Assembly: GCA_963796685.1 (NCBI GenBank)
Contig: CAWCMR010000026.1
Location: 1-64,000, forward strand
Length of the DNA: 64,000 nt
Origin: an uncultured delta proteobacterium
GTDB taxonomy: Bacteria > Myxococcota_A > Polyangia > Fen-1088
Direction of reading: 5' to 3'
The translations under genes were made by a program, and so were the position numbers. Shown here in pieces: positions 40,315 to 60,136 of this stretch. Positions within the stretch are counted from its first letter, which is position 1, and the number at the start of each line of letters is the position of its first letter. A model generated the notes under the pieces. It was not told where the DNA came from and ran no database searches. It saw nothing but the letters and a program-made list of their open reading frames with translations.

Positions 40315-40364
40315 CCTCTCGCCAACGGCGTGACAGACTGATTCATGATCCTGGGTCTTGCGCT

Positions 40365-40601
40365 GTGAGCGATCTCGTTCGTACGAACAAGCTGCCCTAC
40401 GTCGTCAAGCTGGCGCGCGGGGACTACTACTGGTGCGCCTGCGGGTTGTCCAAGCGGCAGCCCTACTGCGACGGATCGCACCGAGGCACCCTGCACTCGC
40501 CCATGAAGGTCGCTCAAACCGAACCCGGCGAGGTCAAGCTGTGCGGCTGCAAGCAGTCGGCGACGAAGCCCTACTGCGATTGCACCCACGAAAAGCTGTA
40601 G
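40365..40601 (+). CDS. CDGSH iron-sulfur domain protein (two CDGSH-type motifs)
   Basis: WCACGLSKRQPYCDGSH and LCGCKQSATKPYCDCTH. Confidence 0.88.
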   Translation: MSDLVRTNKLPYVVKLARGDYYWCACGLSKRQPYCDGSHRGTLHSPMKVAQTEPGEVKLCGCKQSATKPYCDCTHEKL

Positions 40602-40681: not shown

Positions 40682-40876
40682 GTGGAACGTTCATTGCGAA
40701 CCTACCAAGACCCGACCGAGGCCGATGAGGCTGATCGGCGGTACTACGCCTCGCTCTCGCCGCAGGAGCGCCTGGACATGGTCGTCGAATTGGTGGACCG
40801 CTACCTGAGTACCTACGGTGAAGCTGCAGAAAGATTTGAAAGAGTTCATCGCATTGATGAACTCCCACGGCGTTGA
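40682..40876 (+). CDS. Small hypothetical protein, partner of the nucleotidyltransferase
   Basis: DRRYYASLSPQERL; overlaps the next gene; TATCCT 6 nt upstream (possibly leaderless). Confidence 0.6.
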   Translation: MERSLRTYQDPTEADEADRRYYASLSPQERLDMVVELVDRYLSTYGEAAERFERVHRIDELPRR

Positions 40877-41288
40877 CTACGTCGTGGTCGGGGGCCACGC
40901 CGTCGGATACCACGGTTATCCGCGCTTCACCGGAGACATCGATCTGTTCATCCGCTCGACGTCCGATAACGCAGTCCGCGTGCTGGCCGTGTTGAGAGCT
41001 TTCGGCTTTTCCGATCTGAGCGACGTCGAGTCGATCCTCTCGCAGCCTGGGAAGGTCGTTCAGCTCGGCCGCCCGCCCAATCGTATCGACATTCTGACCG
41101 GGATCAGCGGGGTCGATTTTGGCGAGGCCTCGGCAGGTGCCCAGCTCTCCCACCTGGATGGTGTCCCGGTGCGAATCATCGGACGGGCAGCGTTGCTCAA
41201 GAACAAGCGCGCCTCCGGCCGCGCGAAGGATCTGGCCGACGTCGAGGAACTGGAAAAGCTTCCGACTGGAAAGGGCCAGCAGAGCTAG
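40818..41288 (+). CDS. Minimal nucleotidyltransferase (DUF6036-like)
   Basis: VVGGHAV.YHGYPRFTGDID...KRASGRAKDLAD. Confidence 0.8.
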   Translation: MKLQKDLKEFIALMNSHGVDYVVVGGHAVGYHGYPRFTGDIDLFIRSTSDNAVRVLAVLRAFGFSDLSDVESILSQPGKVVQLGRPPNRIDILTGISGVDFGEASAGAQLSHLDGVPVRIIGRAALLKNKRASGRAKDLADVEELEKLPTGKGQQS

Positions 41289-42793
41289 ATCCGCCCGCCG
41301 GTGAGCGACATGCTGCTCTTGGGGGTGCGGCTCTCGTTGGCGGCGCTGACGCGTACGCCGGCGCGATCCACGACCGGGCAGCGGTTTTCGCACGTGCCGC
41401 AGCCGGTGCAGTGGTCGAGGTCGACATAGGGGAATTTCAGTGTCTTTTGTGTGCCGTCGCGGGCGGTGATGGTTTCGACCTTGAAGTAGATGGCCTTGGG
41501 CGAGGTCGGGCAAACCTCCTCGCACACGATGCACTCGGTGCCGTAGCCCCAGGGCAGGCAGCGGCCCTTGTCGAAGAAGGCCGAGCCGATGCGCACGGGC
41601 GGTTTGGCCGGCATGGCGCCGACCTTGTCCGCCACCTTGAGGTGCGTGATGGCCCCGGTAGGACAGACCTGTCCGCACAGGGTGCAGCTGCTTTCGCAGT
41701 AGCCGATGCGTGGAATCAGGATGGGCGACCAGAAGCCCTCCAGGCCTGCCTCGTAGAGCGCGGGTTGCAGGCCGCCGGTCGGGCACACCTTCATGCAGGC
41801 GTCGCACTTGAGGCACTTGGCGAGGAAGTCGGGTTCGTCGAGGGCGCCGGGTGGACGGATGCGCGCGGGGTTGGGGCGCGGATCCACGCCGTCGGAGGCA
41901 CGCATGAGAGGAACCGCCGCCACGCCCGCCACGCCCGCGGTGAGCCACTTGCGGCGGGACAGATCGGTCTCGACCTTCGCCAGCTTGAGACTGGGCAGGA
42001 AGCGGTAGGCGATGCCGCCGCGCTTGCAGCTGGTGGTGCAATTCAGGCACACCATGCACTCGGTGGCGCGCAGGGTGCCCTGCGGATCGGCGGCGCCCTG
42101 ACAGTCGGCGCCGCACACGTCGCACTCGTTGCAGCGGCTCAAGTCCTTGCTGATGCGGAAGAGCGAGAACTTGGACAGCAGTCCCAGAAACGCGCCGAGC
42201 GGACACAGCACGCGGCAGTAGAAACGCGGGTAGACGAAGTTGAGCGCCAAGGCGCCGAAGAAGACGATGGTGACGAGCGTTCCCCACTGGAAGTGGCGCT
42301 CGCCCTGGTAGAGGCCGAAGGCGGTGTTGCTGGCCGCCGGCAGGGCCGAGACGGACAGGCCGCGCCAGGTGGACGCGATGGGATCGAGAAGCCCGATCTG
42401 CACGCTGCCGGCCGCGGCCAGTCCCAGCATCACGGCCAGCACGGCGTACTTGATCTTGTGCGACGTGCGCGGGGCATTTTGCTCGACCCGCTGCAAGACC
42501 TTGCGCTTGCGGCCGAGGAAGCCGAGGAAATGGTGGAGCACCCCCATGGGGCACATCCAACTGCAGAAGAAGCGGCCGAACACCAGGGTCAGCACGATGA
42601 GCGGGAGCGACCACAAAAGCGCATGGTGCAGGGCGTGCGAGGCGAGCGCGGTGGTGAGCGCGACCAGCGGATCCAGCTCGAGGAACCACGGGACGTCGTA
42701 GCCGCGGATGAAGTGCGACGTCGTGGCGAAGACGAGGAAGAGAAAGAAGGCGAAAAAGACGGCTTGGTATGCCCGGCGCAACCAGAGGAACAT
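41285..42793 (-). CDS. Membrane polyferredoxin (NapH/MauN-like fused to NapG/MauM-like 4Fe-4S domains)
   Basis: GRFFCSWMCPMG, RFYCRVLCPLG, several CxxCxxCxxxCP motifs, IRPPGA. Confidence 0.85.
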   Translation of the reverse strand: MFLWLRRAYQAVFFAFFLFLVFATTSHFIRGYDVPWFLELDPLVALTTALASHALHHALLWSLPLIVLTLVFGRFFCSWMCPMGVLHHFLGFLGRKRKVLQRVEQNAPRTSHKIKYAVLAVMLGLAAAGSVQIGLLDPIASTWRGLSVSALPAASNTAFGLYQGERHFQWGTLVTIVFFGALALNFVYPRFYCRVLCPLGAFLGLLSKFSLFRISKDLSRCNECDVCGADCQGAADPQGTLRATECMVCLNCTTSCKRGGIAYRFLPSLKLAKVETDLSRRKWLTAGVAGVAAVPLMRASDGVDPRPNPARIRPPGALDEPDFLAKCLKCDACMKVCPTGGLQPALYEAGLEGFWSPILIPRIGYCESSCTLCGQVCPTGAITHLKVADKVGAMPAKPPVRIGSAFFDKGRCLPWGYGTECIVCEEVCPTSPKAIYFKVETITARDGTQKTLKFPYVDLDHCTGCGTCENRCPVVDRAGVRVSAANESRTPKSSMSLTGGRI

Positions 42794-42795
42794 GG

Positions 42796-43848
42796 CTAAC
42801 CTCCCAGCTCCACGGTCTTGAGGCTTCGCCACTCGGACGTGCCCAGGCCGGCCTTCACTCCCTCGACGATGAACCCGAGGCTGGCGGGCGACAGACCGAG
42901 CAGCCCGGCGCCGAAGGCGTCGAGGGCGACCTCGTCGCAGCTGACCGCGATGGTGTCCATCTCCTTCACGTCGGCCAGGCTGCCGCCGGTGGGACCGTTG
43001 GCCAGCAGGATTCGCGTGGCGTCCATGACCGTGAGGGTGGGCTTGATCATGGAGGCCAGATCGACAATGGAGAGGTGGATGTTTTGGTGCAGCTTCACGC
43101 GCTGGCCGCCCAGCATGCCGTACCAATTCTTCATGGCCATGGTGGCGCCGGACAGGCCGTGCTGCTTGACCACGGGGATGTTGATCACCCGGTCGGCCTC
43201 GACGAAGGGGAACAGCACGTCGGCCGTGCGCAGCAGCTTGCCCGCCACGTCGACCTCGCGAAACGCTGGGGCATCGGGCCGCACCACGGTGGCACCGGCG
43301 GCCTTGGCAGCCTTCTCGATGCCCGAGCGGGCAAAGCACTGTTCGGGGGTATTCACCGAGACGTCGGTGACCCAGATCTTGCCGGCGCCGGCCGCGGCGA
43401 CCAATCTCACCACCTCGGCCACCACGTCGGGATTGGTGTTGGCGGCCTGTTCGGGCAGACGGTTCCAACCGATGTTGGGCTTGATGACCACGCGCTCGCC
43501 GCGTTTCACGAAGCGGCCCATGCCGCCCATGGCCTCGACGGCGCGGCGGACATTGGCCGCAGCATCGGACCCGCGCGCGATGGCCATCTCCACCGTGCCT
43601 TGGATCTTCTGCACGCGGTGATCTTTCAACTTGGGCAGGGTCTTGCTCTTGCCGTGGTGGTCGCGAGCGCTCAGCCCGAGCCCCAGGGCCACCGATCCGG
43701 CGGCCATGGCGGCGGTGAGCCCCACGCGGAACAGGGCGCGCCGATTCATCCCGTCCCCTTCACCCATGCCGTCCGGGTTCTTGCCACCTTCGCGCAGCCG
43801 CGCCTCGGGCACGACGTCGCCAGGGCGCGGGGGATCGCCGTTGCTCAT
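42796..43848 (-). CDS. Tat-exported DUF362 protein (paralog 1)
   Basis: NRRALF; VIKPNIGW, INIPVVKQH..AMKN, DATRILL.NGP and VALDA. Confidence 0.8.
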   Translation of the reverse strand: MSNGDPPRPGDVVPEARLREGGKNPDGMGEGDGMNRRALFRVGLTAAMAAGSVALGLGLSARDHHGKSKTLPKLKDHRVQKIQGTVEMAIARGSDAAANVRRAVEAMGGMGRFVKRGERVVIKPNIGWNRLPEQAANTNPDVVAEVVRLVAAAGAGKIWVTDVSVNTPEQCFARSGIEKAAKAAGATVVRPDAPAFREVDVAGKLLRTADVLFPFVEADRVINIPVVKQHGLSGATMAMKNWYGMLGGQRVKLHQNIHLSIVDLASMIKPTLTVMDATRILLANGPTGGSLADVKEMDTIAVSCDEVALDAFGAGLLGLSPASLGFIVEGVKAGLGTSEWRSLKTVELGG

Positions 43849-44420
43849 TTCATCTTCTCCTTCAGCGCACGCGCCACCACCGGCAACGCTGCCTCGGCTT
43901 TGGCATCGAAGGCGGTCAATTTGGTGTAGTAGCGGCCGTGGTGAAATACCAACGACATGGGGCCGACGATGGCCTCGGGCCAGCCTTCCACGAACTTGGC
44001 GGTGGCGGATTTCTCTTTGTCGAAAATCGCCTGGGCATTTTCGGGTGTGGCCATGTCGTACACGTCGCACACCAGGTCGCTACCCTCGGGCGTCGCCATC
44101 TCGGCAGCGGCCAACTTGCGGAAGTGGCGTTCGATGAAGATGGGCGCGGCGCCGTCGATGTAGTCGAAGAGGCCCTTCTCGTCGTACAGCGCGACTTTCT
44201 CCTTGACCCTCGCGCCCGTGGGAGCCGGCTCGAAAAGCGCGCGCAGGGCAGCGTCCGCCTCTTGCCCGCTCGGGCGCGCCAACGCGGGCGAGTGCTCGAC
44301 GGGCGGCGCCTTGTGGCCTTGCCAGACAAGGGTACCGATGAGGGTCGGCGGGATCACGGCCAGGACTGCGAAGACGAGGATGCGCACGGGACTGCGAAGA
44401 GGGTATGTCGGGAACGGCAT
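43845..44420 (-). CDS. Membrane-anchored DUF6599-like protein
   Basis: TM helix; LFDYIDGAAPIF, DVYDMATPENA.AIF and GRYYTKL. Confidence 0.65.
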   Translation of the reverse strand: MPFPTYPLRSPVRILVFAVLAVIPPTLIGTLVWQGHKAPPVEHSPALARPSGQEADAALRALFEPAPTGARVKEKVALYDEKGLFDYIDGAAPIFIERHFRKLAAAEMATPEGSDLVCDVYDMATPENAQAIFDKEKSATAKFVEGWPEAIVGPMSLVFHHGRYYTKLTAFDAKAEAALPVVARALKEKMK

Positions 44421-44444
44421 GCCGATCAAGGCCGACCGCAGCGT

Positions 44445-44456
44445 AATTCCGGAATT
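44445..44456. promoter_or_regulatory. Perfect palindrome in a divergent promoter (operator candidate)
   Basis: AATTCCGGAATT. Confidence 0.45.
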
Positions 44457-44546
44457 GCGGTATCGCAGTGAGGTGTGGATAATGACCTCGCTCGGCCGGG
44501 GATGTTCCTGGCAGAAGGCCGACTGGTTCCAGCGAAGGAGGATACG

Positions 44547-45219
44547 ATGACTCGTCTAGGCTCTATGATTTCGTGCACCGCACTTGGATTGGGTGCCGTG
44601 CTTTCGGGTTGTGGAGGCGGCGGCAGCAGCGGCGGCGGGGGCGGCGCCTCCAGCGCGCTGGATCTCATTCTCGCGAGCAACGCGGTTGGGGGATGGGCAT
44701 TCGACAACAGCGATTCGCATCTCACGAACGGACCTGCCACTGCCACGACCGAAGCGGCTACCGGCGCGCTCATCGATGGCGCCTCGGCCGACTTCTTCGC
44801 AGCCCCCAGCACCCCGGTGCAATTTGCCTGGATGAACTACCTGAACACGAGCATCAGCACGGCAGACACCACCAGCGGTGCCCCGGACCAGTACTTCCCG
44901 AAAGGGGCCACCCTAACGCTCTATGTTTTGCAGATGCCCAACGCAACCCAAGTATCGGGGCTCTACTCCTCGCTGCTCAGTGCCTCGCTCTACGTCGGGA
45001 AAACCTGGACTGAGCCGAGCCTCTCCAGAGGTCGGAACCGATTCTCGTATCGCCAACACGGGGGATCACTGGTGGATCAATTTCTACAAGGGCAACTTCT
45101 ACGTCGAGGTGAGCGTCGGTCCATCGTACAGCCCTCCGCCCGATTACACGCCACCGGAAAACGCGGCCACCAAGGCGGAGGCATTCGCCTTCGCCTCGGC
45201 GGTTGCGGCGAAGATCTGA
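44547..45219 (+). CDS. DUF6599-like lipoprotein; frameshift near 45020
   Basis: AAGGAGG RBS, lipobox LSGC, ALIDGASADF, LYVLQMP and FYKGNFYVEV. Confidence 0.55.
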
Positions 45220-45221
45220 TC

Positions 45222-46433
45222 TCACCCCATCGGGTCGGCCTCGTCAGCGGCGCCGCTATCGATGGTGGCGCCCCCATCGATGGCCGGGGTGCCATCCGCC
45301 GCCAGGGCGACCAGGGTGTAGTCCTTGGTCCCGATGCCTAGCTGGTGGGCGCCGTCGAGCCAGACTGTGATGTCTGCGGCGACGGCGTCGGAAGGTTTTT
45401 GATTGTGAAAGGGAGTAGTGCGTAGCTGGTTGATGAGATCCAAGGCGTAACGATCCAAGGCCAGGGGATCCATGGATGCGAAGATACGCCCCGGAAAACG
45501 GTCGACAGGGGAGGCTGTGTCACCCACTGCGACGGCCTGCAATGCGTCCACGATCGTGAGCTTGATGCTGTTGCGGATCTGCGGGATGTTGTAGAGGGCG
45601 GGCAAGGCCGTCGGCAGGTCGATACCGTTGGCCTTGTCGGTGTGGAAGCTGCCCGGAATGTCGATGATGCCGAAGATGTTCTTCAGGGCGACGGTGATGC
45701 CGGATTGGTTGTGGTATTTGAGCACCGGGCAATTGATGGTCACGTCGGTCATCTCGGTCAGGATGCGCGAAAGGCGAGGGGTCAAGCCTTGGAAGGTTCC
45801 GAAGAACTGGTCGGAATAGCGCGGGCCGTGCCAGTCCTTGAGGGTTACGACGGTGCCCAGCAGTTGCGCACCCTGCAAATGCTCGTCGGTATACTTCCCG
45901 GCACCCTTCAATTCGTCGAGCTGCCTATCCCAGACGATGATATTGCCGGGGCAGACATCGGTGTGAGTCTGCAGGTTCTTGATGATGGCTCGAACCAGCG
46001 CCGGCGATGTCGGGAAATGCGAATTGAGGCAATTGACCTTGAGGCCGATCCGCGTACATGTGCCGATATTCGGCAGAAGAACCGACCATGGGTTGGCAGC
46101 GCCGCCAGCCAGAGTCGATAGAACCGCATCGACCATCTCTGCGACCACGTCGAGCTGAGGCTGCGCGAGGCTCTTGCCGGTGGCGTCGATGCTGTCGTCA
46201 CGTTGGATGGTGACGACGGTCGAGGCTCCTGTCATCGGGCCGGAGGATCGCTCCTCCGCGACGATACCGCCGTCGGGTGGGCTGCAACCGCAGGTCGACG
46301 CAACCGCAGCATCGGGCCAGGTGCCGCCGACGTCGGGGAAGCAGCCCGCCACACCACCCAGGGACGCCGCCGCTGCCGCACTGGCCGCGCCGGCCAATAT
46401 TTCTCGTCGGGTCAGTCCTGGCTTGTCCGCCAT
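45222..46433 (-). CDS. Tat lipoprotein, DUF362 (paralog 2)
   Basis: TRREIL..VAGC; GLKVNC, INCPVLKYH..ALKN and DPLALD. Confidence 0.75.
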   Translation of the reverse strand: MADKPGLTRREILAGAASAAAAASLGGVAGCFPDVGGTWPDAAVASTCGCSPPDGGIVAEERSSGPMTGASTVVTIQRDDSIDATGKSLAQPQLDVVAEMVDAVLSTLAGGAANPWSVLLPNIGTCTRIGLKVNCLNSHFPTSPALVRAIIKNLQTHTDVCPGNIIVWDRQLDELKGAGKYTDEHLQGAQLLGTVVTLKDWHGPRYSDQFFGTFQGLTPRLSRILTEMTDVTINCPVLKYHNQSGITVALKNIFGIIDIPGSFHTDKANGIDLPTALPALYNIPQIRNSIKLTIVDALQAVAVGDTASPVDRFPGRIFASMDPLALDRYALDLINQLRTTPFHNQKPSDAVAADITVWLDGAHQLGIGTKDYTLVALAADGTPAIDGGATIDSGAADEADPMG

Positions 46434-46467
46434 GTGTTCTTGCCTCCCGCGGAACGAAAACTGGAAA

Positions 46468-46490
46468 ATCCGAAATTCGGAAATTCGGAT
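46468..46490. promoter_or_regulatory. Palindromic operator candidate in a divergent promoter
   Basis: ATCCGAA-N9-TTCGGAT, containing AATTCGGAAATT. Confidence 0.5.
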
Positions 46491-46605
46491 GAAGATTAGC
46501 ACATAGATCTTCCGCGCTCTGATACAATTCTCCGCGGTCGGAGTGGGGCATGGGCTTTCTCAACGACGGCGTTCGGCGCAGTCACAACCGATAAGGAATC
46601 CCGCC

Positions 46606-47517
46606 ATGAAAGTCATTTCTCGACGTAGCTTCGTAGGTGGCTCGATCGCAGCGGCCGCGGCCCTGAAGTACGGCCGGGTCTTTGCCGCGGGCAGCACCCC
46701 TGACATCGTCGACGTGTCGGGAAGCGATCCCGCGAAGATGGTCGCGGCTGCGCTGGCGGGGCTCGGGGGCATCTCGAAGTTCGTAAAGAAGGGCGATTTT
46801 GTCGTCATCAAGCCCAACGCGGCGTTTGCGAACCCGCCGGCCTGGGGAACCACCACCCATCCCGAGACCGTGGTGGCCATTGCCAAGGCCTGCCTGGATG
46901 CCAAGGCCAAAGAGGTCTTGATCCTGGAATTTCCCCAAGCCAAAGGTGAGAAGTGTCTGGAACGCTGCGGGCTGACGGCCGCGATGGCCGCGCTGCCGGC
47001 GGCGAAGGTCAAGCTGCTGAGCGGCGCCGGGGATTTCCAGAAAGTCGATGTGAAAGGTGGGGTAACGCTGAAGTCGGTCGAGGTCGCCAAGGCGATACTT
47101 TCGGCCGATGTGTTCATCAACGTGCCTGCCGCCAAGGCGCACTACCAGGCCGGGGTTTCCCTCGGGCTCAAGAACCACATGGGGCTCATTTTCGACCGCC
47201 AAGCCTTCCACACCGCGATGGAGCTGCACCAGGCGGTCGCCGACTTGGGACGCGTGATCGTCCCCAATCTGACCATTCTCGATGCCACACGGGCGCTGCT
47301 GACCAATGGCCCGGCGGGACCTGGCGACACCGCGACGCCGGGACGCATGGTGGCCGGCCGTAAGGTCGTGTCGGTGGACGCCTACGGCCTCACCGTGGCC
47401 AAGTTCAACAACAAAATCATGACCCCGGCGGAAGTGCGTTACATCGAGCTCGCAGGCAAGGCTGGCCTTGGTGAAATCGACATCGCCAAGATGAAAGTCA
47501 AGAAAGTCAACGCGTAG
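46606..47517 (+). CDS. Tat-exported DUF362 protein (paralog 3)
   Basis: SRRSFV; VIKPNAAF, INVPAAKAH..GLKN and DATRALLTNGP. Confidence 0.82.
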   Translation: MKVISRRSFVGGSIAAAAALKYGRVFAAGSTPDIVDVSGSDPAKMVAAALAGLGGISKFVKKGDFVVIKPNAAFANPPAWGTTTHPETVVAIAKACLDAKAKEVLILEFPQAKGEKCLERCGLTAAMAALPAAKVKLLSGAGDFQKVDVKGGVTLKSVEVAKAILSADVFINVPAAKAHYQAGVSLGLKNHMGLIFDRQAFHTAMELHQAVADLGRVIVPNLTILDATRALLTNGPAGPGDTATPGRMVAGRKVVSVDAYGLTVAKFNNKIMTPAEVRYIELAGKAGLGEIDIAKMKVKKVNA

Positions 47518-47526
47518 CGCGTATCC

Positions 47527-50500
47527 ATGAAACGCGCGGTCTTTGTCGTGGCCGCGGTGGCGCTGGCGTACGCGGCTCCATCGTGGGGCCGCACTCCTGA
47601 AATTGCCGTCGATCCCGTCAATGGCATCTGGATCGCGCAGGACGACAAGTTCATCTTTCAGACCCTCGACCGTTGGACTGTCTTTTCGGCGGGCGCGACC
47701 GTCAACAAGCTGGTCGTGGATCAGAACATCCTGTGGATCGCCACCGACGACGGGGTCATCCGTTTCGAGACCGGCAGCCAGCGATCGACCAAGCTGACCA
47801 TGGATGACGGCCTTCCCAGCCAGCGGGTCAGCACCGTCGCTTTCGACGACCAGTACGTTTGGTTCGGCACCAACAAGGGCCTGGTGCGCTACCGCAAGAC
47901 GGATCGCACGCTCAAGTTGTACGACGAAACCAACGGCCTGCCGAACAAGGCGGTCACCTACGCTGTCACCATCGGTCGGCAGGTCTGGTTCGGCACCCAC
48001 GCCGGAATCGCCGTGTTCAGCCCCGACGTCGATGGCTTGCGCGCGTTCGGCGAGGTGGACGGCATGGCCTCGGGCGACGTCGCCGAGCTGTTTCAGGTCG
48101 GCAGCGATCTGTGGTGTCGCACCGATGTCGGGTTGTCGCGTTTTCGCATTCAACAACGCGTGTTCAACAACTTCCCTCTGACCCTGATGGGCGCGCAGCA
48201 ACTGCGCGTGATGTCGGTCGACGGCGCCGACATTTGGCTCGGAACCGACAACGGCCTCTACCAGTTCCAAGACGCCAGCGACAGTATCATTCCCTTTCCT
48301 CAGCAATCCGCGCTGGGCAGCAAGATGATCGTCGGCGTCGAGCCAACCAGCTCCTACGTCTATATCACCACCGACAAAGAGGTCCTGCAATACAGCCGCA
48401 CCTCGCTGGCCATTCGTCGGTGGACGGCGGCCGAGGGACTCACCCATCAGGAGGGCTCGACGGGCACCCTGACCCAGGGTGGTTTCTTCACCGTCATGTT
48501 TCCCGACTCGGCCGAGATGTACAACATCCAGCTCGACCAGTGGACAGATCGGAAGATAGAGGTGAAGGCCGGCAGCGGCAATAGGACCACGGCGCGCGTG
48601 TTTGGCCAGCTCGACTCGGAAATGCCCTACAACAACGTCCATCTGGGTCCTGGCTTCCTTCACGGAACGCCCGATTCCGAGAACCAGTATGCCAATGCCA
48701 CGGGCGGCTTTGGCTTCGGACAGCAGCTCGACAAGGATCGGACCTTCAACGGCTCCGTGTATCTCGACTACGGTCAGCTCAACGCGAGTGGAATTCGCGA
48801 TTTGCAATACAAGATCGAGTACCTCGGCAACCAGAACGATGTCGTACGCGACGTGCGCATCGAAGACAAGTTGAAGTATCGCTACGTGGAAGAAGGGTTG
48901 GAGAGGCAGCTCCTGCTCCAGGGGGCCCATGTGGGCTTGGCCACCCCGGGGGCCGAGCCCAAGGTGAGCATGACCGCCGACGCAGGCTTTCGTCGCGGGC
49001 AGGTCGTGCGCGACTTCATCACCGGTCCGCGGCAAGAGACCTATCAACTCTCGCAGAAGTACATTCTGCCCGGAACCGACAGGGTCTATGTGGACGGCGA
49101 GTTGCTCAACAACGGGACCGACTACACCATCGTCTACACCGCCGGGCAACTGCTCTTCCTCAATCCCGAGCGCATCGACGATCTGAGCGTCATCACGGTC
49201 GAGTACGAGCACGACCTCGTACCCAAGAAGGACCTGGGAAATCTTTCCTTGTCCTCCAGGCTGCCGGTGACCAATGAAATCGGAAATTGGGCGCTTTCCG
49301 GAACGCCCACCATCGTCAGCAGCGACACCGCCCTTTACAACCAAATTGACGGCGGCGCACCCAAGTACATCGATCGGGGTTGGATTAGCGGCGTGTACGC
49401 CACCTACCAGCAAGGCGGCAGCAGCATCCAGGTCGCCATCCACAACATGGGCACCGCGGACTTCGCACAATCCCTTTATCAATTCGATCTGCCGGTCTCG
49501 CGCCTGACACTCAATACGCTGCCCGACGGCACGGTCAACGCGGTCGTGGACATGGGCTTGCCCAGCGCCTACGCGGCCGAGGCCGTCGTCGATCAGTACG
49601 TCATCGAGGTGTCCATCGACGACCGTTCGGATGCGGCGCTGGCCTACATCAAGACCTTCACCATGGAGATTCTCAATCGCAGCAAGCAGGCCGGTGCGAG
49701 CCTTGGCGATCAATTCAAGGAATGGATGGTGGCCACGAGAGTTGCCGCCTCGCCCGTCAGCGGCATGGAAATTGGTGCGCGCGCTGTCGAGCTGCAACAG
49801 ATGTCGGACACCCGGGATGCCAACGGCAATCTCATCAGCCCGGCCTTGCACCTGACCACCGGGGCGCTCGATGGTCGCTATCAGACGAAGGTAGGCGAGG
49901 GCGGGCTTATGACCGGTTACGCCGAAATGGCGGGCTCGCACGATTCGACCGGCCCGCGACCCGACGGCTTGGCCGGAATGGCCTTTCTGCGTCTATCCAG
50001 CCCGACCCTCGAAGGCATGCTGTCCGGCCGACTGAACTCGGAAGGGTGGACGCCCATTGGCCATACCACGCCGACCCCCGTCGATCCCTCGACGAGAACC
50101 TGGAACGATGCGCGACTGGGGACCTTGCGCGACGAGACCCGTTTCAACGTCACCGGCTATCCCGTGGCGTGGTTGCCGATTACCGCGCTGTTCACCCGGC
50201 AACGTGCCTGGCTGCCTGACGGAAGTGGAGGCACGGGCACGCTCCAACATGCCATCGCACGGGTGCAGCTCAACAAGGCCGGCCTGCCCGGCACCACCCT
50301 GCAGCTCGGCAGCACCGAGCTCGACAATCCCAACGGCTTTCAGACCCATCGTTTGCAGGGCTCCCTGCAAACAGACTACGATCTCGCGCCCGCGCTCTCT
50401 TTCACCCATCTCAAGAAATTCAATATTCGGGCGCTCTACAGTCTCTCGCAAGGCGAGACCGACGAGAATGGCACATACGCCTATGAGGATCGGGTGCGAT

Positions 50501-51712
50501 TGATGCGCTTCGAGGGCAAGCTCTCACCCACCGCGACCGAGTCCATCTACGCGCTCTATCGCTCGCGCGACGTCGGCCGGCAACTCGATCCCGGCAGCCC
50601 CTTCTGGCGCAGTCTCTACCACTGGGAAGCTCACCTCCGGCGCGCAAAGCCGGATCATCCCCGGCCTCGTGCCGCAATTGAATTACAACCTGATCTACGA
50701 CGACAATCGTACGGCCCCGATCGCCCCTGGCGCGGCTGCAAGTGCCACGCCAGCAGGCGCGCCTGCAGCCGCAGGCTCAGGCGTCTTGAGCGTGAACCAG
50801 TGGGCCAACACGGGGCCCGCGGGCTCGGCCATCACGCCGGTCGGGCCGGGGCCCCTGGCTCTTCAAGCCCCAACGGTGACGGTGACGGGGTCGATCGGCG
50901 CGGGGCTTGGCATCTACCCCGGACAGTGGTTCGCCAAGCTTGCCCCGCTCGCCCTTTCCCCCAGCGTCGCGGTCGGTGACAGCGAGCAGACCGTCACCGG
51001 CTACAAAACCACCTACGGCCGCGTCTACGACTTCGTGGTGCTGGAAGTGTGGGGGGGGCGAAAATTGGAGATGCAGCTCTATCAGCGCTACCGTGTCACG
51101 ACCACCTCGACCGACGCTCAGCCCGAGCCCTACGAGAGCGCGACCACCACCATCCTGCAGAACCGCATCGTCTACCGGCCCATCTTCACCTCGCCCATTA
51201 CGCTTCTCCTCAACTATGCCAAGGATCGGGGCATCAATGACCCGACGCTGATTTCGAACGCCGGTCCGTGGTGGACCAAGGAAAGCTATCAGAGCACCCT
51301 GCAGTGGCTGATGCGTTGGAACCAGACGTTCACCACACGCTCGACCGCCACGGGAACGCTGGAGCGCACCTCGGACTCTTTCGCGGCGGGCGCCGATTCG
51401 GGCGAGTATCTACCCGCGGATCACTCCAAGTACTCCGTGTACGGCGAATTTCAGATCCGAATCTACCCGTTGCCTGAAGTCTCGGCCCTCTACATCTACC
51501 AGACCTCGGGCGTCGCGCGCTGGTTCGGCAGCGGCGTTGGCGCCTTCGAGGCATGGGAGCTCCTGCCGGCCGCCGGCGTGATCTGGCGCCTGGGCGACAA
51601 GCTGTATCTCGATGCGCAGTTCAGCTACGACTATCTCGGCTGCATGTCGGGCATCGCCTGCGCGCCTGTCTCGAGGGTGCTTCCGCACCTGTACTTCACC
51701 ATGAATCTGTAG
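47527..51712 (+). CDS. ~1390-aa putative outer-membrane protein: beta-propeller + SprA-like motif + DUF6599-like insert + beta-barrel; frameshift near 50627
   Basis: Signal peptide, WFGT.KGL/DGLPS propeller repeats, GTDYTIVYTAGQL..VEYE, LYNQIDGGAPKY, amphipathic strands, C-terminus YFTMNL. Confidence 0.65.
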
Positions 51713-51730
51713 CGGCGGGGTGATACCCTC

Positions 51731-52726
51731 GTGAACGTCATGCGTAGTCGGTGCCTGCTCTCGTTCCTGCTTGCTTCGGCGACGCTTTCCGCCTGCAAGT
51801 CGCGCACGACCGAGGTCGTCGTCTTCTACGCCAGCAGCCTCTCGGCGGTCTTGGGCGACGCGGCCGAGGCGTTCCACAGGGCCAATCCGGACCTACGCGT
51901 CCGCCTCGAGCCCTCGGGCTCGCAGGTGGCCGTACGCAAGGTGGTCGAGCTCGGCATGCGCGCCGACATCGTGACCGTCGCCGATGCGGCCCTCATCGAC
52001 AAGATGATGATCCCTGCGCACGCCACCTGGAACGCCGTGTTCGCGACCAACGAGATCGTCATCGCCCACAAGGATCACAGCAAGTGGACGGAGCAGATCA
52101 CGGCGCAAAACTGGCCCGAGATCCTCACGCGCCAGGGCGTTCGGCTCGGGCGGGCCGATCCCGACACCGCACCGGTCGGTTACCAGACCCTGATGGTCTG
52201 GCAGCTCGCCGAGACATCAGGCCTCTACGGTCCCGCGGGTGCGCAGCTATCCGAGCGCATGAAGGCCCAATGTTCGAAGGATCACGTGGTCCACGACGAG
52301 GCCGAGCTTCTGGCTCTGCTCGAATCGCGGGCCATCGACTACGCCTTCCTCTTTCGGTCGACCGCCGAGGACCACCACCTCAAGATTCTGGCGTTGCCGC
52401 CGGAGATCAACCTGTCCCGACAGGACCAGGCCGCGTCCTATGCCCGCGTCAAGGTCGGGATCCGCATGAAACAAGGGCAGGGCAAGGCAAGCATCGTCGG
52501 CGCTCCGGTGACCTATGGCCTCGCCATTCCGAACCGTGCCCCCCATGCCGCCGCCGCCAGCCGCTTCGTCGCCTTCTTGCTTGGCCAGTCCGGCCGCCGT
52601 TTGTTCGAGCGCAGAGGCTTCCACCCCGTCTCGCCCGCCCGGTGCGTTGCGTGCGCCGGCCTTCCCGCGGAGCTCCAGGCGCTCGTGCTGTCCGCCGCGC
52701 CCGCCGCCGAGGCGGCAACGCCGTGA
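51731..52726 (+). CDS. WtpA/ModA-like oxyanion (tungstate/molybdate) ABC substrate-binding lipoprotein
   Basis: Lipobox LSAC; ASSL, SGSQ, FATNE, DP..PVGY, E.ELL.LLE..IDYAF, LPPEINL and TYG. Confidence 0.78.
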   Translation: MNVMRSRCLLSFLLASATLSACKSRTTEVVVFYASSLSAVLGDAAEAFHRANPDLRVRLEPSGSQVAVRKVVELGMRADIVTVADAALIDKMMIPAHATWNAVFATNEIVIAHKDHSKWTEQITAQNWPEILTRQGVRLGRADPDTAPVGYQTLMVWQLAETSGLYGPAGAQLSERMKAQCSKDHVVHDEAELLALLESRAIDYAFLFRSTAEDHHLKILALPPEINLSRQDQAASYARVKVGIRMKQGQGKASIVGAPVTYGLAIPNRAPHAAAASRFVAFLLGQSGRRLFERRGFHPVSPARCVACAGLPAELQALVLSAAPAAEAATP

Positions 52727-53943
52727 AACGCGCCTGGGTCCAAGCGGCGGTCGCGACGGTCGTTTTGGCCGCGATTCACGTTGGTATCGGCATGGCGCCC
52801 ATGTCGCCGTTTTCGCTGGGCGTGAACCTGGCGCTGTTCTTCACCAACCTCTTCGTGTTCTACACCGCGGCCATGGTGCTGCGCCGGCGCTCGGCGCGCT
52901 CGGTGTTGCTCTTCGTCGCCGGATACTCCGCGCTGTTCGTGCTGATCCTTGCCGTACTGAACAAGCCGCCGCTCTTCATCCTGCTGGTCATCGCCTACGC
53001 GGGGTTCTTCGGGGCGCCGGTGCTGCTCGGGTTCTTCGCCATCTTCGTTCTCTGCTTCGTGATCCTGCAGCCCTTCGCCTTCGAAACCTTCATTCCGCTC
53101 TCGCTCATCTACTCGGTCTACTGGATGACGCGCGGGAAAGCCTCGCGCTTCGCGCGCTTGTGTCTGTGTGGGGGCCTCTTGGCCCTGACCTTGGTGCTCT
53201 TTCCTCTCATCTACTTGAGCATGCAGGATTCCTTGCAGACGCTCTGGCGCACCTTCATGCGAGGAGACGTGGCCAGCGCCATCTGGCTGAGCCTGCTCAC
53301 CTCGACCATCGCCACGGTGGTGTTGGCAGTCTGGTCCGTGCCGCTCGCCTATGCACTGGCGCGCATCGATTTTCCGGGCAAGCGCTGGGTCGAGTCCATC
53401 GTCGACGTCCCCATCTTGGTTCCGCAGTCGGTGGCCGGGGTGGCGCTGATCGTGCTGCTCGGTCCGGGCAGCGTTCTCGGCGGTGCGTTCGAGAGCCTCG
53501 GGTTGCCCATTTCGGGCTCGCTGCTCGGCATCGTCATCGCGCAGGTTTTCGTGGCCGCGCCCTTTCTCGTGAAGACGGCGATGACGGCCTTCGAGGCGGT
53601 GCCGCTACAGTACGAGCTGGCATCGCGCAGCCTGGGCGCGTCGCCGGCCGCCACCTTCGCGCGCATCTCGCTGCCACTGGCCTCGCGCGGAATCATGGTC
53701 GGCGCCACGCTGGCCTGGGCGCGCGCCATCAGCGAATTTGGCTGCATCGTGCTCTTCGCCAGCTCGCCGGTCACCGCGCCGGTCCTGGTCCACACGGAAT
53801 TCTTGCGCGCCGGCGCCTCGGAAAGCCGGCCCATCGCCATTCTGCTGCTCATCATCTGCTTGTGGGTATTCGCGATGTTGCAGTTCGGGCAGTCCCTGAT
53901 GCCGTTCGCCCTGCGCGGCCCGCGCGGAGGCCGTCACCCATGA
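52723..53943 (+). CDS. WtpB/ModB-like ABC permease with extra N-terminal TM region
   Basis: VPLAYALAR..FPGK, DVPILVP and WARAISEFG. Confidence 0.82.
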   Translation: MKRAWVQAAVATVVLAAIHVGIGMAPMSPFSLGVNLALFFTNLFVFYTAAMVLRRRSARSVLLFVAGYSALFVLILAVLNKPPLFILLVIAYAGFFGAPVLLGFFAIFVLCFVILQPFAFETFIPLSLIYSVYWMTRGKASRFARLCLCGGLLALTLVLFPLIYLSMQDSLQTLWRTFMRGDVASAIWLSLLTSTIATVVLAVWSVPLAYALARIDFPGKRWVESIVDVPILVPQSVAGVALIVLLGPGSVLGGAFESLGLPISGSLLGIVIAQVFVAAPFLVKTAMTAFEAVPLQYELASRSLGASPAATFARISLPLASRGIMVGATLAWARAISEFGCIVLFASSPVTAPVLVHTEFLRAGASESRPIAILLLIICLWVFAMLQFGQSLMPFALRGPRGGRHP

Positions 53944-54725
53944 TCGAGCTGACGAACCTCCGCTGCACCTTCGGCGACTTCGCGCTGCGGGACATTTCCC
54001 TGCACCTCGACAAGGGCGACTACTGGGTCATCCTGGGTCCGAGCGGCTGCGGCAAGTCGGTCCTCTTGCAGACCATCGCGGGCTTCTTCGCGCCCGCGCA
54101 CGGGCGGATCCACGTGGACGGCCGCGACGTGACCGGGGTGGCGCCCGAGCATCGCAAGATGGGGCTCGTGTTTCAGCAGGCCGCGCTGTTCCCCCACAAG
54201 TCGGTTCGCGAGAACATCGCGTACGGCTTGCGTGCGCGCAAGGTCGCGCGCGAGGAGGTGGACCGCACCGTCGACGACTTGATCGTGCGTCTCGGGTTGC
54301 GTGCCATCCTCGGTCGTCCGGTGGCCACGCTCAGCGGGGGCGAGGCGCAGCGCGTGGCCGTGGCGCGCGCCCTGGCCATCAAGCCCGATCTGCTTCTTCT
54401 CGACGAGCCCATGAGCGCGCTCGACCACAACACGCGCCTCGAATTGCAGACGGAGCTGGCCAGGGTTCACAAGGAGCTGGGACTGACCACCCTGCACGTC
54501 ACGCACAGTCGCGAGGAGGCTGCGGCCTTGGGCGACCACGTCGCCATCATGCTGGGCGGCCGCATCGTGCAACGCGGAAGCGCGGCAGAAGTGCAAGGTC
54601 GACCGCGTTGTCCGTTCGTGGCGCGCTTCCTCGGACTGGAGCCGTCCTCTATTGTCGCATTGCCGGCCTGCGCCCACCGCTGCGTCGAAAAGCCGGGCGA
54701 ATGCGTCGCAGAAGAGGCAAGCTAA
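53940..54725 (+). CDS. WtpC/ModC-like ABC ATPase
   Basis: GPSGCGKS, LSGGE, LLLDEP and HVTH; short, with Cys-rich tail. Confidence 0.88.
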   Translation: MIELTNLRCTFGDFALRDISLHLDKGDYWVILGPSGCGKSVLLQTIAGFFAPAHGRIHVDGRDVTGVAPEHRKMGLVFQQAALFPHKSVRENIAYGLRARKVAREEVDRTVDDLIVRLGLRAILGRPVATLSGGEAQRVAVARALAIKPDLLLLDEPMSALDHNTRLELQTELARVHKELGLTTLHVTHSREEAAALGDHVAIMLGGRIVQRGSAAEVQGRPRCPFVARFLGLEPSSIVALPACAHRCVEKPGECVAEEAS

Positions 54726-54731
54726 GGGGCC

Positions 54732-55793
54732 ATGCAGCCGGAGCGCACACCTCTCGCCAAGGTCTTCAACACGCCGTTCCTGTCGCTCGACGGCACCAGC
54801 GTGGAGATGGCGACGCTGCTCTTCCTGTTCCTGGCGGTCCTCGTTATCAGCAATGCCCATCGTCATCGGCAGTTGATTCGGCGATTCGTGCAGGCGCTGT
54901 CGTTCGTGGTCTTCTTCTACGTCGTGTATTCGTGTCTGGGCGTGTTCGGCATGATCCGCAACGGACTCTACGGCCTGACGCTGGTGGGGTCGGCCTACAG
55001 CGAGTCCTTCTACTGGCTCGCCCTGCCCATCGTGATCATCGCCGTGACCTTGCTGCACGGCCCGGTCTTTTGCGGTTGGATCTGCCCCACGGGGAGTTTG
55101 CAGGATCTCTCCGGCTGGGTTCGCAAGCGGTTGCCGCGACGGCCGGGCGGCCTCAGCCGCGCGCAACTCTTCGCCATCGCCGGCGCGAGCCTGGGGTTCA
55201 TCGCGCTCATGGTTTGGCTGGGGGTCAGGAAGAAACTGTTCATCGAGGACTCGAGCTTGCACTGGGCCGCCATGCTGCTCCTCTTGTGCTGTCTGGTCCT
55301 GGCCGGCGTGATCGACGACATCCCGACGCGCAAGCTCCGCATCCTCAGCTTGGCCGCGATCTTCCTGACCGCGGTCTCGCACATGGTAGTGACCTCGCCC
55401 GTGCACTTCGCGTTCACGGCGCGTGACGATCCGGCCTCCGCGCTCACCACGCTGGTCATCCTCGTGGCTGGAACCTTCGTGCTGCGTTCCTGGTGCCGCT
55501 ACCTTTGTCCCTGGGGCCAATTCATGGGCTTTTTGCACAGGTTTTCCCGCCTGCGCATCCTGCTCGACGCCGGCAAGTGCAACCACTGCGGCGTGTGCGA
55601 CACCAGCTGCGACGTGGCTGCCATCGAGAAGGGCGTGATTCGCATCTCGAGCTGCCAGTTCTGCTACGCCTGCGTGGACCACTGCTCGAATTCGGCGCTG
55701 AAGGTCGAAGATGTGTGGTCGATTCGTACCAAGCAGGAAAGCGATCAGGCCCAAGCGAAGGCGTCCGCACCCGGCGAGAGCGCGCCGGCATGA
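54732..55793 (+). CDS. NapH/NosR-like membrane 4Fe-4S protein
   Basis: FCGWICPTG, WCRYLCPWG, CNHCGVCDTSC and CQFCYACVDHC. Confidence 0.82.
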   Translation: MQPERTPLAKVFNTPFLSLDGTSVEMATLLFLFLAVLVISNAHRHRQLIRRFVQALSFVVFFYVVYSCLGVFGMIRNGLYGLTLVGSAYSESFYWLALPIVIIAVTLLHGPVFCGWICPTGSLQDLSGWVRKRLPRRPGGLSRAQLFAIAGASLGFIALMVWLGVRKKLFIEDSSLHWAAMLLLLCCLVLAGVIDDIPTRKLRILSLAAIFLTAVSHMVVTSPVHFAFTARDDPASALTTLVILVAGTFVLRSWCRYLCPWGQFMGFLHRFSRLRILLDAGKCNHCGVCDTSCDVAAIEKGVIRISSCQFCYACVDHCSNSALKVEDVWSIRTKQESDQAQAKASAPGESAPA

Positions 55794-57259
55794 ATTCGCG
55801 CACCCTCGTCGCCGCCCTGGTTTGCTCGTTGCCATGTCCCGCCGCCGCCGCGGAATGCCAGGTTTGGTCGCAAAGTCGGTGCGACGCGCAGAACCAGGCC
55901 TCGATCGAGCTCGGTGCTGCCGATGCCGCCCCGCCGCACGCCTGGAGCTTCGACGGCAGCGGTCGCGTCTGGGGCTACGAGCCCGGTCTGACGGTCTGGT
56001 CCTCGCCCGCGCTGGGCGTGGCTGGTGACCAACCCATCGTCGTGGCGGGCAACTACGACCACACGATCTATTGTCTGAACGCCGCCACCGGCGAGACCCT
56101 GTGGCAGCTCACCACGGGGGGGCCAGTCTATGCGGCCCCGGTCTTTTTTCAGGATGGTGCACGCCAGATCGTGTTCGCCGCCTCCAACGACCGCATCGTG
56201 TATGCCATCGATCCCGCGCTGGGCCGCCAGATCTGGGTGCATGCGGTCGAGGACTTCCGTCCCACCCTGGGCGGTGCGCGCCTCGCCGCTCCTTGCGTGG
56301 GCGGTACCGGCGACCAGGGCGAGAAAGACGACGCGGTCTTCGTTCCCTACTGGATCTGGGATCGCTCGCTTGCCCACAGCGAGCAGCGAAGCGGCGTGGT
56401 CGCGCTCGCTGTCGAGGATGGACATCTCCTCTGGCGCGCGGATCTGGGGGACAACGAGTTGACCGCCGCCATCTTCGTGCGCTTGCAAGGCCGGGGAACG
56501 CTCTTCCTCGGCTCGTCGAGCGGCAACATCTACGCCATCGCGGCCAAGAGCGGCCAGGTGCTGTGGAAGAAGGCCGAGCTCGACTGCGTGCGAAGCCCAC
56601 CGGCTTTTGTTTCGACCAGCCAGGGACCCATGCTGGTAACGGGATCCAAGTTCGGGACCGTGCGCGGACTCGATGCGCTCACGGGGGCCGAGCGCTGGCA
56701 GTTCCGCACTGGCGACAGGATCACGGGGGCGCCGGCGACTCTCGCGGGAACGCCGCCGCGGGCTTTCGTGGGCTCGTACGATCGGAATCTCTACGCCATC
56801 GGGGCAGACGACGGCTCGGCGCTTTGGCACGACACGGCCCGCGGCGGGGTCTTTTCCTCGCCCGCCATCATCGCAGGCGGCGGTGAACCGATGGTGTTGT
56901 CCATGGCCTGGGACCACATGCTGCACGCAAACGCTCTCGACCGCGGGCGGCCGATCTTTTCCGCGTTCACCGGCCGGCCGCTGTGGAACGTGGGCGGCAT
57001 GGACGACAGCAATTGGTCTTCGCCGGCCGCCGGGCGCATCCACGGTCATTGGATGGCGTTCGTGGGCAGTTACGACGGAACCTTGCGCGCGCTTCCACTC
57101 GGCGCGCACGAACGCTCGGCGCCAGAGCTTCGATCCAATCTGTGGTTCTGGCTTTCCTTCCCGATCTTTCTCGTGCCCATCGCCGCCGTTGCGATTCTTC
57201 TCACCCGGCGCGAGCGGCGACGCAGGCTCGGGCTCGGGGCCTCTATTCCAGCTCGTTGA
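55790..57259 (+). CDS. PQQ-like (BamB-type) beta-propeller protein with C-terminal TM anchor
   Basis: SSPA / GSYD..LYA repeats, signal peptide, C-terminal hydrophobic helix followed by RRERRRR. Confidence 0.75.
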
Positions 57260-57794
57260 CGACCAGGGGGATCTGGCTACCGGTGACATCGCCGATGCTG
57301 TTGATCACGCCGGCTCGAGTAAATTCTGCCAAGGTCCCGTTGCAATTCATGTCGCCCTTCGAAAACGCGGTGAACTTCGCGGCGACCCCGGTTCCCGAGG
57401 CGCTGTACCCGGGCATGTAGTGGTGTGGATCCGGCATGGCGAAATCGAGCGCCTTCCAGACGGGATCCGAGGCCCAGATCGGGTTGTTGCCGGGGCAGGC
57501 GGCGCCAGTCAAGCAGCCGCATTCCCTCGCACTGGCCCAGGCCGCCGATGGGCCGGGGAACTCCTTGGTCAGGACCTTTCCGAACGCCACGGTGTGATCG
57601 GACTCGTAGTACGCCAGCGAGCCAACCCACTCTTTGTTCAGTTGCCCCACGGCCTCGGATGTTCTGGCTTTGCGGACGTACCGGCTGAAGGCGGGAATGG
57701 CGATGGCAGCCAGGAGCCCGATGATTGCCACGACAATCATCAGCTCGACCAGGGTGAATCCAGAGATCCCGTGTCGGATTCCACGTGGTGCCAT
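57243..57794 (-). CDS. pilA: Type IV major pilin-like protein
   Basis: G|[32 protein letters not shown] and GDMNCNG. Confidence 0.8.
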
Positions 57795-57834
57795 GCCTGC
57801 TCCTAAATGCCAAAGACCTTCTTGTTGCGGATTA

Positions 57835-57850
57835 TGCAGCAACAGTGCCA
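57835..57850 (-). promoter_or_regulatory. Sigma54 -24/-12 promoter of the pilin
   Basis: Minus strand reads TGGCAC-TGTTG-CTGCA. Confidence 0.7.
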
Positions 57851-59493: not shown

Positions 59494-59581
59494 GGCGGTC
59501 GGCATAACCAACGCCGGGATCTGGCATCAAAGCCGATATGACAGTTCGAGTCGTCGCCTGTATTCCAAGAAGGAGGAATCC

Positions 59582-60115: not shown

Positions 60116-60136
60116 CCCGGCCGAACAGCGAGGCGA

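Follow-up and report, generated by a model that had tools for sequence, protein, structure and literature searches.

Positions 41285-57259 of a contig from an uncultured delta proteobacterium (CAWCMR010000026.1; Myxococcota_A, Polyangia) carry a gene cluster that encodes three DUF362 paralogs, DUF6599 modules, two membrane polyferredoxins, a giant secreted protein and a WtpABC-like transporter. The analysis covered the window, the whole 64-kb stretch of this contig (positions 1 to 64,000, ~65% G+C), in which genes were called by third-position G+C and family scans. In the best explanation, to which we assign a probability of roughly 0.4, the cluster encodes an envelope enzyme system that is specific to its lineage, uncultured Myxococcota represented by Polyangia-type metagenome-assembled genomes (MAGs). 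LarA-like enzymes exported by the twin-arginine translocation (Tat) pathway would sit on DUF6599 modules and be connected to the membrane through NapGH-type ferredoxins.

The cluster comprises four transcription units. The first, on the minus strand, holds DUF6599_1, DUF362_1 and polyferredoxin 1. A DUF6599-like lipoprotein gene stands alone on the plus strand, and DUF362_2 stands alone on the minus strand. The fourth unit, called as an eight-gene operon on the plus strand, runs from DUF362_3 through the giant gene and the WtpA, WtpB and WtpC genes to polyferredoxin 2 and a beta-propeller protein. This gene content, in ~16 kb and four units, had been listed in an initial annotation of the same DNA, and all of its components were recovered (coordinates in the table below).

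DUF362_3 and DUF6599_1 have hundreds of close metagenome relatives, the named ones being Polyangia, Myxococcales and Deltaproteobacteria MAGs. A scan of genome contigs yielded 23 loci, 17 of Myxococcota type (64-90% identity) and six distant ones (30-33%; one Gemmatimonadota and five Bacteroidales). DUF362_2 lies beside DUF362_3 in all 17 Myxococcota loci, and the giant gene follows DUF362_3 in each of the 15 that could be assessed. The upstream group of polyferredoxin 1, DUF362_1 and DUF6599_1 is present in 12 of 13 assessable Myxococcota loci, L009 being the exception, and the lipoprotein gene is found in all Myxococcota loci reaching its position, again bar L009. Polyferredoxin 2 and the propeller were seen in the closest relatives only (4/9 assessable). 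The recurrence in 17 related loci indicates that the arrangement is not due to chance. It supports the view, proposed in the initial annotation, that the Tat-DUF362/DUF6599/giant/NapH-type cluster is a conserved and previously undescribed multi-component envelope locus.

All three DUF362 paralogs score above the Pfam gathering cut-off of PF04015 (24 bits), as DUF6599_1 does for its own family. Each paralog begins with a twin-arginine motif and a hydrophobic N-terminal region, read here as a Tat signal, and each has a K-x-H...K-N core. CxxC-type cluster motifs were searched for in the paralogs, which have 2, 7 and 3 cysteines, and none was found. The Pfam and motif scans are in agreement with the earlier description of three Tat-type DUF362 proteins with this core and without a CxxCxxC motif. 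Conservation was assessed in an alignment of 105 diverse relatives, drawn from a set of 100 cluster representatives to which the three window paralogs and five distant homologs were added. The twin arginine is kept in 101-103 of these sequences and the RRx## pattern in 97. In the numbering of DUF362_3, residues N71, K177, H179, H202 and D258 are invariant (105/105), and K189, D226 and N190 are present in 104, 103 and 93 sequences, respectively. DUF362_2 is the most divergent paralog; its twin-arginine motif and lipobox were found in 14 of 14 orthologs. DUF362_1 has orthologs at 59-88% identity in 12 loci. In quick trees the paralogs form three clades, each spanning loci, with SH-aLRT supports of 99-100 (100 for the DUF362_2 clade), which places the triplication, judged by these trees, before the split of these Myxococcota lineages. 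A PDB sequence search with DUF362 gave no match for the single sequence and one chance-level match for the profile. A protein atlas search with the DUF362 and DUF6599 proteins of the window returned their own clusters only. The NCBIfam family that the window DUF362 proteins match best takes its name from a Nostoc protein, which is a lead and not evidence; Npun_F2552 is not mentioned in the literature searched.

The fold of DUF362_3 was predicted with AlphaFold2 from the diverse 105-relative alignment (pLDDT 95.8, pTM 0.89), and the model was compared with the PDB by Foldseek. Among the 13 matches listed up to rank 19, 12 are named LarA, malate racemase or LarA-like, and the remaining one is an unnamed T. 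maritima protein. These matches have E values of 3e-7 to 1.6e-5, a probability of 1.00, TM-scores of 0.41-0.50 (query) and 0.30-0.37 (target) and 11-14% identity; the next match after them has an E value of 8e-4. As modelled, they demonstrate a LarA fold for DUF362_3, with partial coverage of LarA. The LarA-only matches agree with the Pfam classification, in which DUF362 and DUF2088/LarA_N share clan CL0471 (PMC11770544, a study in which DUF362 served as an outgroup only).

The conserved core may correspond to the cofactor site of LarA. In DUF362_3, H179 is followed by K189 after 10 residues and by H202 after a further 13; in the I. pallida enzyme (LarA_Ip) the spacing is His, 10 to Lys and 16 to His. 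PMC12611868 identifies these residues of LarA_Ip as the catalytic His173, Lys183 as the thioamide tether of the cofactor and His199 as the fourth nickel ligand. Both proteins have an (S/T)-x-G-x-K turn, and in both the first His lies 11 residues past the preceding D-x-x-I strand. Our hypothesis, in a residue register set by eye only, is that the K-x-H...K-N core matches the spacing of the catalytic His, the tether Lys and the nickel-ligand His of LarA, and that DUF362, as modelled, might bind a pincer cofactor. The window itself encodes a LarA homolog at 3100-4293 (+; Lar_N 127.5 bits). It is atypical, its best PDB matches being the "single catalytic histidine" LarA-like proteins 9q2u (E 1e-19) and 9q3j (E 3e-17), and it adjoins a 1,505-aa reductase/adenylation/carrier/acyltransferase protein (4715-9232). 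The presence of a genuine LarA homolog hints at synthesis of the nickel-pincer cofactor in this organism.

Three DUF6599 modules accompany the three DUF362 proteins, each encoded beside one DUF362 gene. DUF6599_1 exceeds the PF20244 cut-off of 27 bits and has one predicted N-terminal transmembrane (TM) segment followed by the domain. The lipoprotein has no Pfam match; its intact orthologs align with DUF6599 by hhalign (probability 85.9%, E 5e-6). The third module lies inside the giant protein at residues ~567-694 (hhalign probability 97.7%, E 1.5e-12) and stays below the Pfam cut-off of 27 bits (22.1 and 26.8 bits). Of the two free DUF6599-like proteins counted initially, one is upheld by Pfam and the other, the lipoprotein, by hhalign; the module within the giant adds a third. 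The AlphaFold2 model of DUF6599_1 (pLDDT 87.3) had no Foldseek match in the PDB at E <= 1e-3. The nearest structures, the PknH sensor, TiME and TP0453 (E 8e-3 to 0.1, TM-score ~0.36), are extracytoplasmic ligand-binding or sensor domains and serve as a lead only. The library searched held no literature on DUF6599. In three loci the lipoprotein is circularly permuted, with the "WW.N..KG.YY" C-terminal half first (L003 7939-8568, L004 230-1027, L006 7903-8613), and in L012 (6837-7910) DUF6599_1 is a tandem double domain.

Further support for a connection between the two families is provided by the distant loci. A signal-peptide DUF6599 gene lies directly 3' of DUF362 in four of the six (L018, L020, L021 and L022), and the paired genes overlap or have gaps of no more than 42 nt; the pair is missing from L019 and from L023, which is truncated. 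A twin-arginine motif is present in four of the five full-length distant DUF362 proteins, namely three of the four paired ones (L021 has a Sec-like signal) and L019. In this small sample, picked by two peptide patterns, the results support a DUF362-DUF6599 gene link that holds across phyla. From the gene order we infer that the two proteins may also bind each other.

Polyferredoxin 1 starts 2 nt past the DUF362_1 stop codon. Read along its length, it has about four predicted TM segments, two CxxxCP motifs and two [4Fe-4S] motifs, an SRRKW motif with a hydrophobic segment that resembles a Tat signal, and four [4Fe-4S] motifs. Its NapH part (residues 2-263) reaches 74 bits with NCBIfam NF007013 (cut-off 234) and its NapG part (residues 276-484) 94.5 bits with NF007012 (cut-off 269). 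Polyferredoxin 2 has 6-7 predicted TM segments, two CxxxCP and two [4Fe-4S] motifs, and scores 67.6 bits with TIGR02163 (cut-off 213). Across the NapH/MauN models (TIGR02163, NF007013) polyferredoxins 1 and 2 score 69-74 and 59-68 bits against cut-offs of 213-234. With scores so far under the cut-offs, both proteins are, on their sequences, NapH-like and neither Nap components nor NapH members by curated rule. The two NapH-like polyferredoxins of the initial annotation are borne out to this extent, both having two CxxxCP and [4Fe-4S] motifs.

These components can be combined into a working model. The DUF362 enzymes would fold in the cytoplasm and be loaded there with their cofactor, which the invariant K-x-H...K...H pocket would take up. 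The leading candidate is a LarA-type nicotinic-acid/nickel pincer, with a directly bound metal as the alternative. The loaded enzymes would be exported by Tat and then dock on their DUF6599 partners, which are predicted at three envelope positions: in an inner-membrane-anchored protein, in a lipoprotein and as a domain of the ~1,400-aa secreted protein that also carries a ligand-binding-type propeller. Once docked, DUF362 may transfer a hydride on a small hydroxylated substrate, for example a hydroxy-acid or sugar derivative. Polyferredoxin 1, probably coupled translationally to DUF362_1, would tie these periplasmic reactions to a cytoplasmic reductant or to the quinone pool. Its task could be to carry electrons of the substrate or to maintain the cofactor in its reduced form; NosR-type proteins do the latter for N2O reductase. 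The WtpABC proteins, polyferredoxin 2 and the propeller would form an accessory module that was inserted in one sub-lineage and does not define the system.

A number of findings weigh against this model. In the by-eye register, the ribose-binding Asp70 and the phosphate-binding Arg73 of LarA_Ip fall opposite K69 and A72 of DUF362_3, and the first catalytic His of LarA is Asp or Glu in 95 of the 105 DUF362 relatives. Alignment of DUF362 profiles with the window LarA homolog by hhalign was not significant (E 0.14-0.27), and a low-confidence extension sets H179, not K189, opposite the Gly-Gly-His-Lys turn of LarA. Lar_N (PF09861) is matched by none of the three window DUF362 proteins and by one of the 105 relatives (E 0.002). 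DUF362 covers part of LarA only (target TM-score 0.30-0.37), with ~270 mature residues against ~420. The genes larB, larC and larE are absent from the 64-kb window and from the scanned loci. Fused DUF362-DUF6599 or longer fused DUF362 proteins were not found, which is weak evidence. Neither polyferredoxin nor wtp genes occur in any of the six distant loci, so the redox wiring is not universal. Finally, here and in four close relatives the operon includes the Wtp genes, which stand after the giant gene and before polyferredoxin 2; this placement speaks for some functional tie.

A simpler view is that DUF362 is a metal-binding hydrolase or isomerase using His, Asp and Lys, with Tat export serving metal loading, DUF6599 acting as a substrate-binding or anchoring partner, and the polyferredoxins being neighbours with a separate role. 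We consider this rather unlikely. The invariant N71, K177, H179, H202 and D258, together with D226, do resemble a His/carboxylate metal site. The residues with which LarA binds ribose and phosphate are not kept, and the DUF362-DUF6599 pair occurs without a ferredoxin in other phyla. However, the 2-nt spacing of polyferredoxin 1 and DUF362_1, and their retention together in 12 of 13 assessable loci, speak against this view. Pfam, as cited in PMC5742341, remarks on frequent fusions of DUF362 to Fe-S domains, which points in the same direction, and the only structural relatives of DUF362 are hydride-transfer enzymes.

The initial annotation had interpreted the DUF362 proteins as new tungsten/molybdenum (W/Mo) redox enzymes, loaded through the WtpABC importer and assembled with the giant and NapH-type proteins into an envelope-spanning complex. 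The importer itself was analyzed by family scans. The WtpA-like protein scores 235.4 bits with TIGR03730 (cut-off 242.75) and 265.9 bits with NF003196 (cut-off 355), and it matches solved archaeal ModA/WtpA-class proteins in the PDB at E 1e-57 to 5e-45. The WtpB-like permease scores 215.4 bits with NF040839 over residues 150-387 (cut-off 340), and the WtpC-like ATPase 285.9 bits with NF040840 (cut-off 440). The N-terminal extension of the permease (~150 aa) consists of predicted extra TM segments and aligns in its orthologs. The designation WtpABC-like is retained in that these are the best NCBIfam matches of all three subunits, but none reaches its equivalog cut-off. The "NDDPAGY" stretch of MA_0280 reads (D/N/E)(T/L)APxGY in all seven Myxococcota WtpA copies in which a motif search found it; in the WtpA-like protein and its Myxococcota orthologs, (T/L)A replaces the acidic pair of the archaeal stretch. 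The octahedral-site Asp of WtpA presumably lies in this stretch. PMC11350598 confirms only that one Asp and one Glu make the octahedral site.

Several observations speak for W/Mo loading. The WtpABC-like genes lie within the DUF362_3 operon, with gaps of 6-27 nt or overlaps. They directly follow the giant gene in five loci and lie 3-5 kb beyond it in three others, so that 8 of the 12 Myxococcota loci that could be assessed have wtp within 5 kb, and the linkage survives transposase, arylsulfotransferase or sulfatase insertions. The Tat signals fit export of a cofactor-loaded protein, and no conventional Mo/W enzyme was found within the window: as the initial annotation had stated, the 66 open reading frames (ORFs) scanned gave no match to Pfam families of Mo/W-pterin enzymes or molybdenum cofactor (Moco) synthesis. 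Against this, wtp is absent from the 5.7-6.0 kb available in four Myxococcota loci and from all six loci of other phyla. Comparison of neighbourhoods confirms the association of DUF362_3 with the giant gene and restricts that with wtp. A search of the whole window with Rfam at gathering thresholds returned nothing, and hence no Moco riboswitch; no pterin-synthesis gene lies nearby. The DUF362 fold is LarA-like and not that of any pterin enzyme, and a nickel-pincer fold points to cofactor chemistry other than W/Mo. Moreover, a stretch of 64 kb is too short to rule out Mo/W enzymes in other parts of the genome, and synteny among relatives can reflect inheritance instead of function. W/Mo dependence of DUF362 is therefore unsupported, and the proposal of enzymes fed by the importer is distinctly improbable. 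The putative tungstate/molybdate importer looks like an optional add-on rather than a cofactor supplier.

In the three loci with a distant wtp, the genes between it and the giant gene encode transposases, an arylsulfotransferase, DUF2478/NTPase, or a sulfatase with a radical-SAM protein. The inserts in L011 (17539-20097), L012 (15251-17853) and L013 (9690-12265) hold an arylsulfotransferase and DUF2478/NTPase, or a sulfatase and a maturase-like radical-SAM protein. These sulfatase and arylsulfotransferase inserts hint at a link to sulfated substrates.

The giant protein has a Sec signal, a Reg_prop propeller of the hybrid two-component system (HTCS) type, the internal DUF6599 domain and a C-terminal region of ~650 aa. 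The propeller (N-terminal, ~70-290) matches PDB entries 4a2l (best), 3v9f and 3ott at E 2.7e-36 to 1.5e-14, and the C-terminal ~650 residues have no PDB match. The conserved C-terminus ends in ...Y-F-T-M-N-L with alternating hydrophobic residues. A crude strand-alternation test for a barrel gave no signal, and the C-terminal sequence is compatible with an outer-membrane barrel, in line with the location proposed in the initial annotation, without being proof of one. On a further reading the proteins of the cluster would not be enzymes of small-molecule metabolism but would build or help to assemble the myxobacterial envelope, or conduct electrons to the cell surface, with the DUF362/DUF6599 pairs as adaptors. 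Similarity of the giant to the outer-membrane proteins PorZ and SprA of the type IX secretion system (T9SS), Tol-Pal and pilin genes downstream, and DUF6599 modules predicted at three envelope layers would fit this idea. However, the PorZ and SprA scores (26 and 20 bits) are far under the cut-offs and at noise level, and the downstream genes are not kept beside the cluster in more distant loci. The invariant polar pocket of DUF362 is typical of catalysis, and neither haem motifs nor any other series of redox centres able to span the periplasm are present. We regard a purely structural or conduit role as very improbable.

Two genes of the cluster are split in the window. DNA alignment with the 90%-identical locus L001 located a 1-nt insertion near 45017-45021 in the lipoprotein gene and another near 50623-50628 in the giant gene. 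The giant is encoded by one uninterrupted ORF of 1,319-1,413 aa in other loci, and intact orthologs of the lipoprotein exist elsewhere. Since polyferredoxin 1 of L001 also shows frame breaks, an indel error of sequencing or assembly is plausible, and as likely a cause as gene decay, for both split genes.

The propeller protein at the end of the operon has PQQ_2 repeats of the BamB type (101.2 bits), a predicted signal peptide and one C-terminal TM anchor, as expected from its first description as an anchored PQQ-like propeller. With the PQQ dehydrogenase model TIGR03075 it scores 52.7 bits, below the cut-off of 480.

The region upstream of DUF362_3 was aligned as well. An AAGA(A/T)TAGCA box is common to ten loci (the window, L001-L008 and L017), and a -10-like TCTGnTA(C/G)AAT box lies 21 nt downstream of it. 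The ~78-nt leader holds a GC-rich palindrome of the GACCGCG...CGCGGTC type. The -10-like box differs in loci that are more distant. A promoter and terminator scan found no consensus promoter and gave results not above shuffled background, and Rfam returned one chance miRNA match only for the divergent promoter regions.

Directly upstream of the cluster lie genes for a CDGSH iron-sulfur protein (40197-40598, +) and a DUF2204 nucleotidyltransferase (40818-41288, +). It is followed by a type IV pilin-like gene (57243-57857, -), whose best match is the myxobacterial PilA model at a score far under its cut-off, and by Tol-Pal genes (59384-63646, +) encoding OmpA/Pal, TolQ, TolR and TolB-like proteins. 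Elsewhere the window holds a VapBC-like PIN/antitoxin pair and a DDE transposase (12558-13489, -; 22238-23554, +).

Table. Features of the DUF362/DUF6599/polyferredoxin cluster, in window positions.
Feature	Position	Strand	Properties and basis
Polyferredoxin 1	41285..42793	-	502 aa, NapH-NapG fusion; NCBIfam NapH/NapG scores
DUF362_1	42796..43749	-	317 aa; predicted Tat signal NRRALF; PF04015 171.7 bits
DUF6599_1	43845..44420	-	191 aa; predicted TM residues 14-32; PF20244 61.4 bits
DUF6599-like lipoprotein	44547..45219	+	lipobox LSGC; split frame; three-frame reading, intact orthologs, hhalign
DUF362_2	45222..46433	-	403 aa; predicted Tat signal TRREIL, then lipobox VAGC; PF04015 68.2 bits
Conserved region upstream of the DUF362_3 operon	46488..46605	+	alignment of 10 loci
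DUF362_3	46606..47517	+	303 aa; predicted Tat signal SRRSFV; PF04015 144 bits; LarA-like fold (AlphaFold2/Foldseek)
Giant secreted protein	47527..51712	+	~1,395 aa on read-through; split frame
WtpA-like oxyanion-binding lipoprotein	51740..52726	+	TIGR03730, NF003196, PDB matches
WtpB-like permease	52723..53943	+	NF040839; ~150-aa N-terminal extension
WtpC-like ABC ATPase	53940..54725	+	NF040840
Polyferredoxin 2	54732..55793	+	353 aa, NapH-like; TIGR02163, motifs
PQQ_2/BamB-type beta-propeller	55790..57259	+	489 aa; signal peptide; predicted C-terminal TM 453-471

DUF362 is a large family without an assigned function, and the literature searched, as far as its texts were available, assigns none. 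If its pocket binds a pincer cofactor, these proteins would be the first exported nickel-pincer enzymes and the first linked to Fe-S electron carriers. In a bolder form, which we hold to be unlikely, Tat-DUF362 would be a second, periplasmic branch of nickel-pincer nucleotide (NPN) enzymes, and with DUF6599 and the NapH-NapG protein it would form a periplasmic hydride-to-quinone oxidoreductase. About 15% of the genomes analysed in PMC11796402, many of them cyanobacteria, have larBCE and lack larA. If real, such a branch would be among the "missing" cofactor users in these genomes, and the users of the cofactor in larA-less genomes would become a directly testable question. The newly described pincer enzymes outside LarA named in PMC13524815 are AKR homologs and ornithine cyclodeaminase, not DUF362, and the literature searched makes no mention of nickel-pincer together with twin-arginine. 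Even without a pincer cofactor, the conserved pair of Tat-DUF362 and DUF6599 is a cross-phylum module, predicted to be periplasmic, that merits characterisation. The result also corrects a tempting and unsupported link to tungsten and molybdenum.

Four known systems can be compared with the cluster. The giant resembles the periplasmic sensor propellers of Bacteroides HTCS proteins in its N-terminal propeller and, unlike them, has no kinase or regulator domains, the propeller being followed by DUF6599 and the ~650-aa region. The archaeal WtpABC tungstate/molybdate importer is the best NCBIfam family for all three transporter subunits, and the WtpA-like protein aligns to solved ModA/WtpA-class proteins; the transporter of the cluster differs from it in its sub-cut-off scores, the TM extension of its permease and the changed NDDPAGY stretch. 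To the LarA superfamily (DUF2088/Lar_N, NPN-dependent 2-hydroxyacid racemases and epimerases) DUF362 is related by clan and fold match and by its His-10-Lys-13-His spacing. It departs from LarA in having no significant profile match, no ribose and phosphate binders and no first catalytic His, and in its Tat signals, a lipoprotein member and gene partners of the DUF6599 and polyferredoxin types. The closest counterpart of polyferredoxin 1 is NapGH. In contrast to the latter, polyferredoxin 1 unites NapH and NapG in a single chain of 502 aa that scores far under the family cut-offs, and it stands apart from NapGH, NosR and MauMN in that no NapA/B/C, NosZ or Mau genes accompany it; its client would be a LarA-fold protein. 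Like NapGH, and also NosR and MauMN, polyferredoxin 1 combines a NapH-type membrane domain with a twin-arginine-preceded NapG-type four-cluster ferredoxin, and, as with NapGH, it is encoded beside a protein with a predicted Tat signal, DUF362_1.

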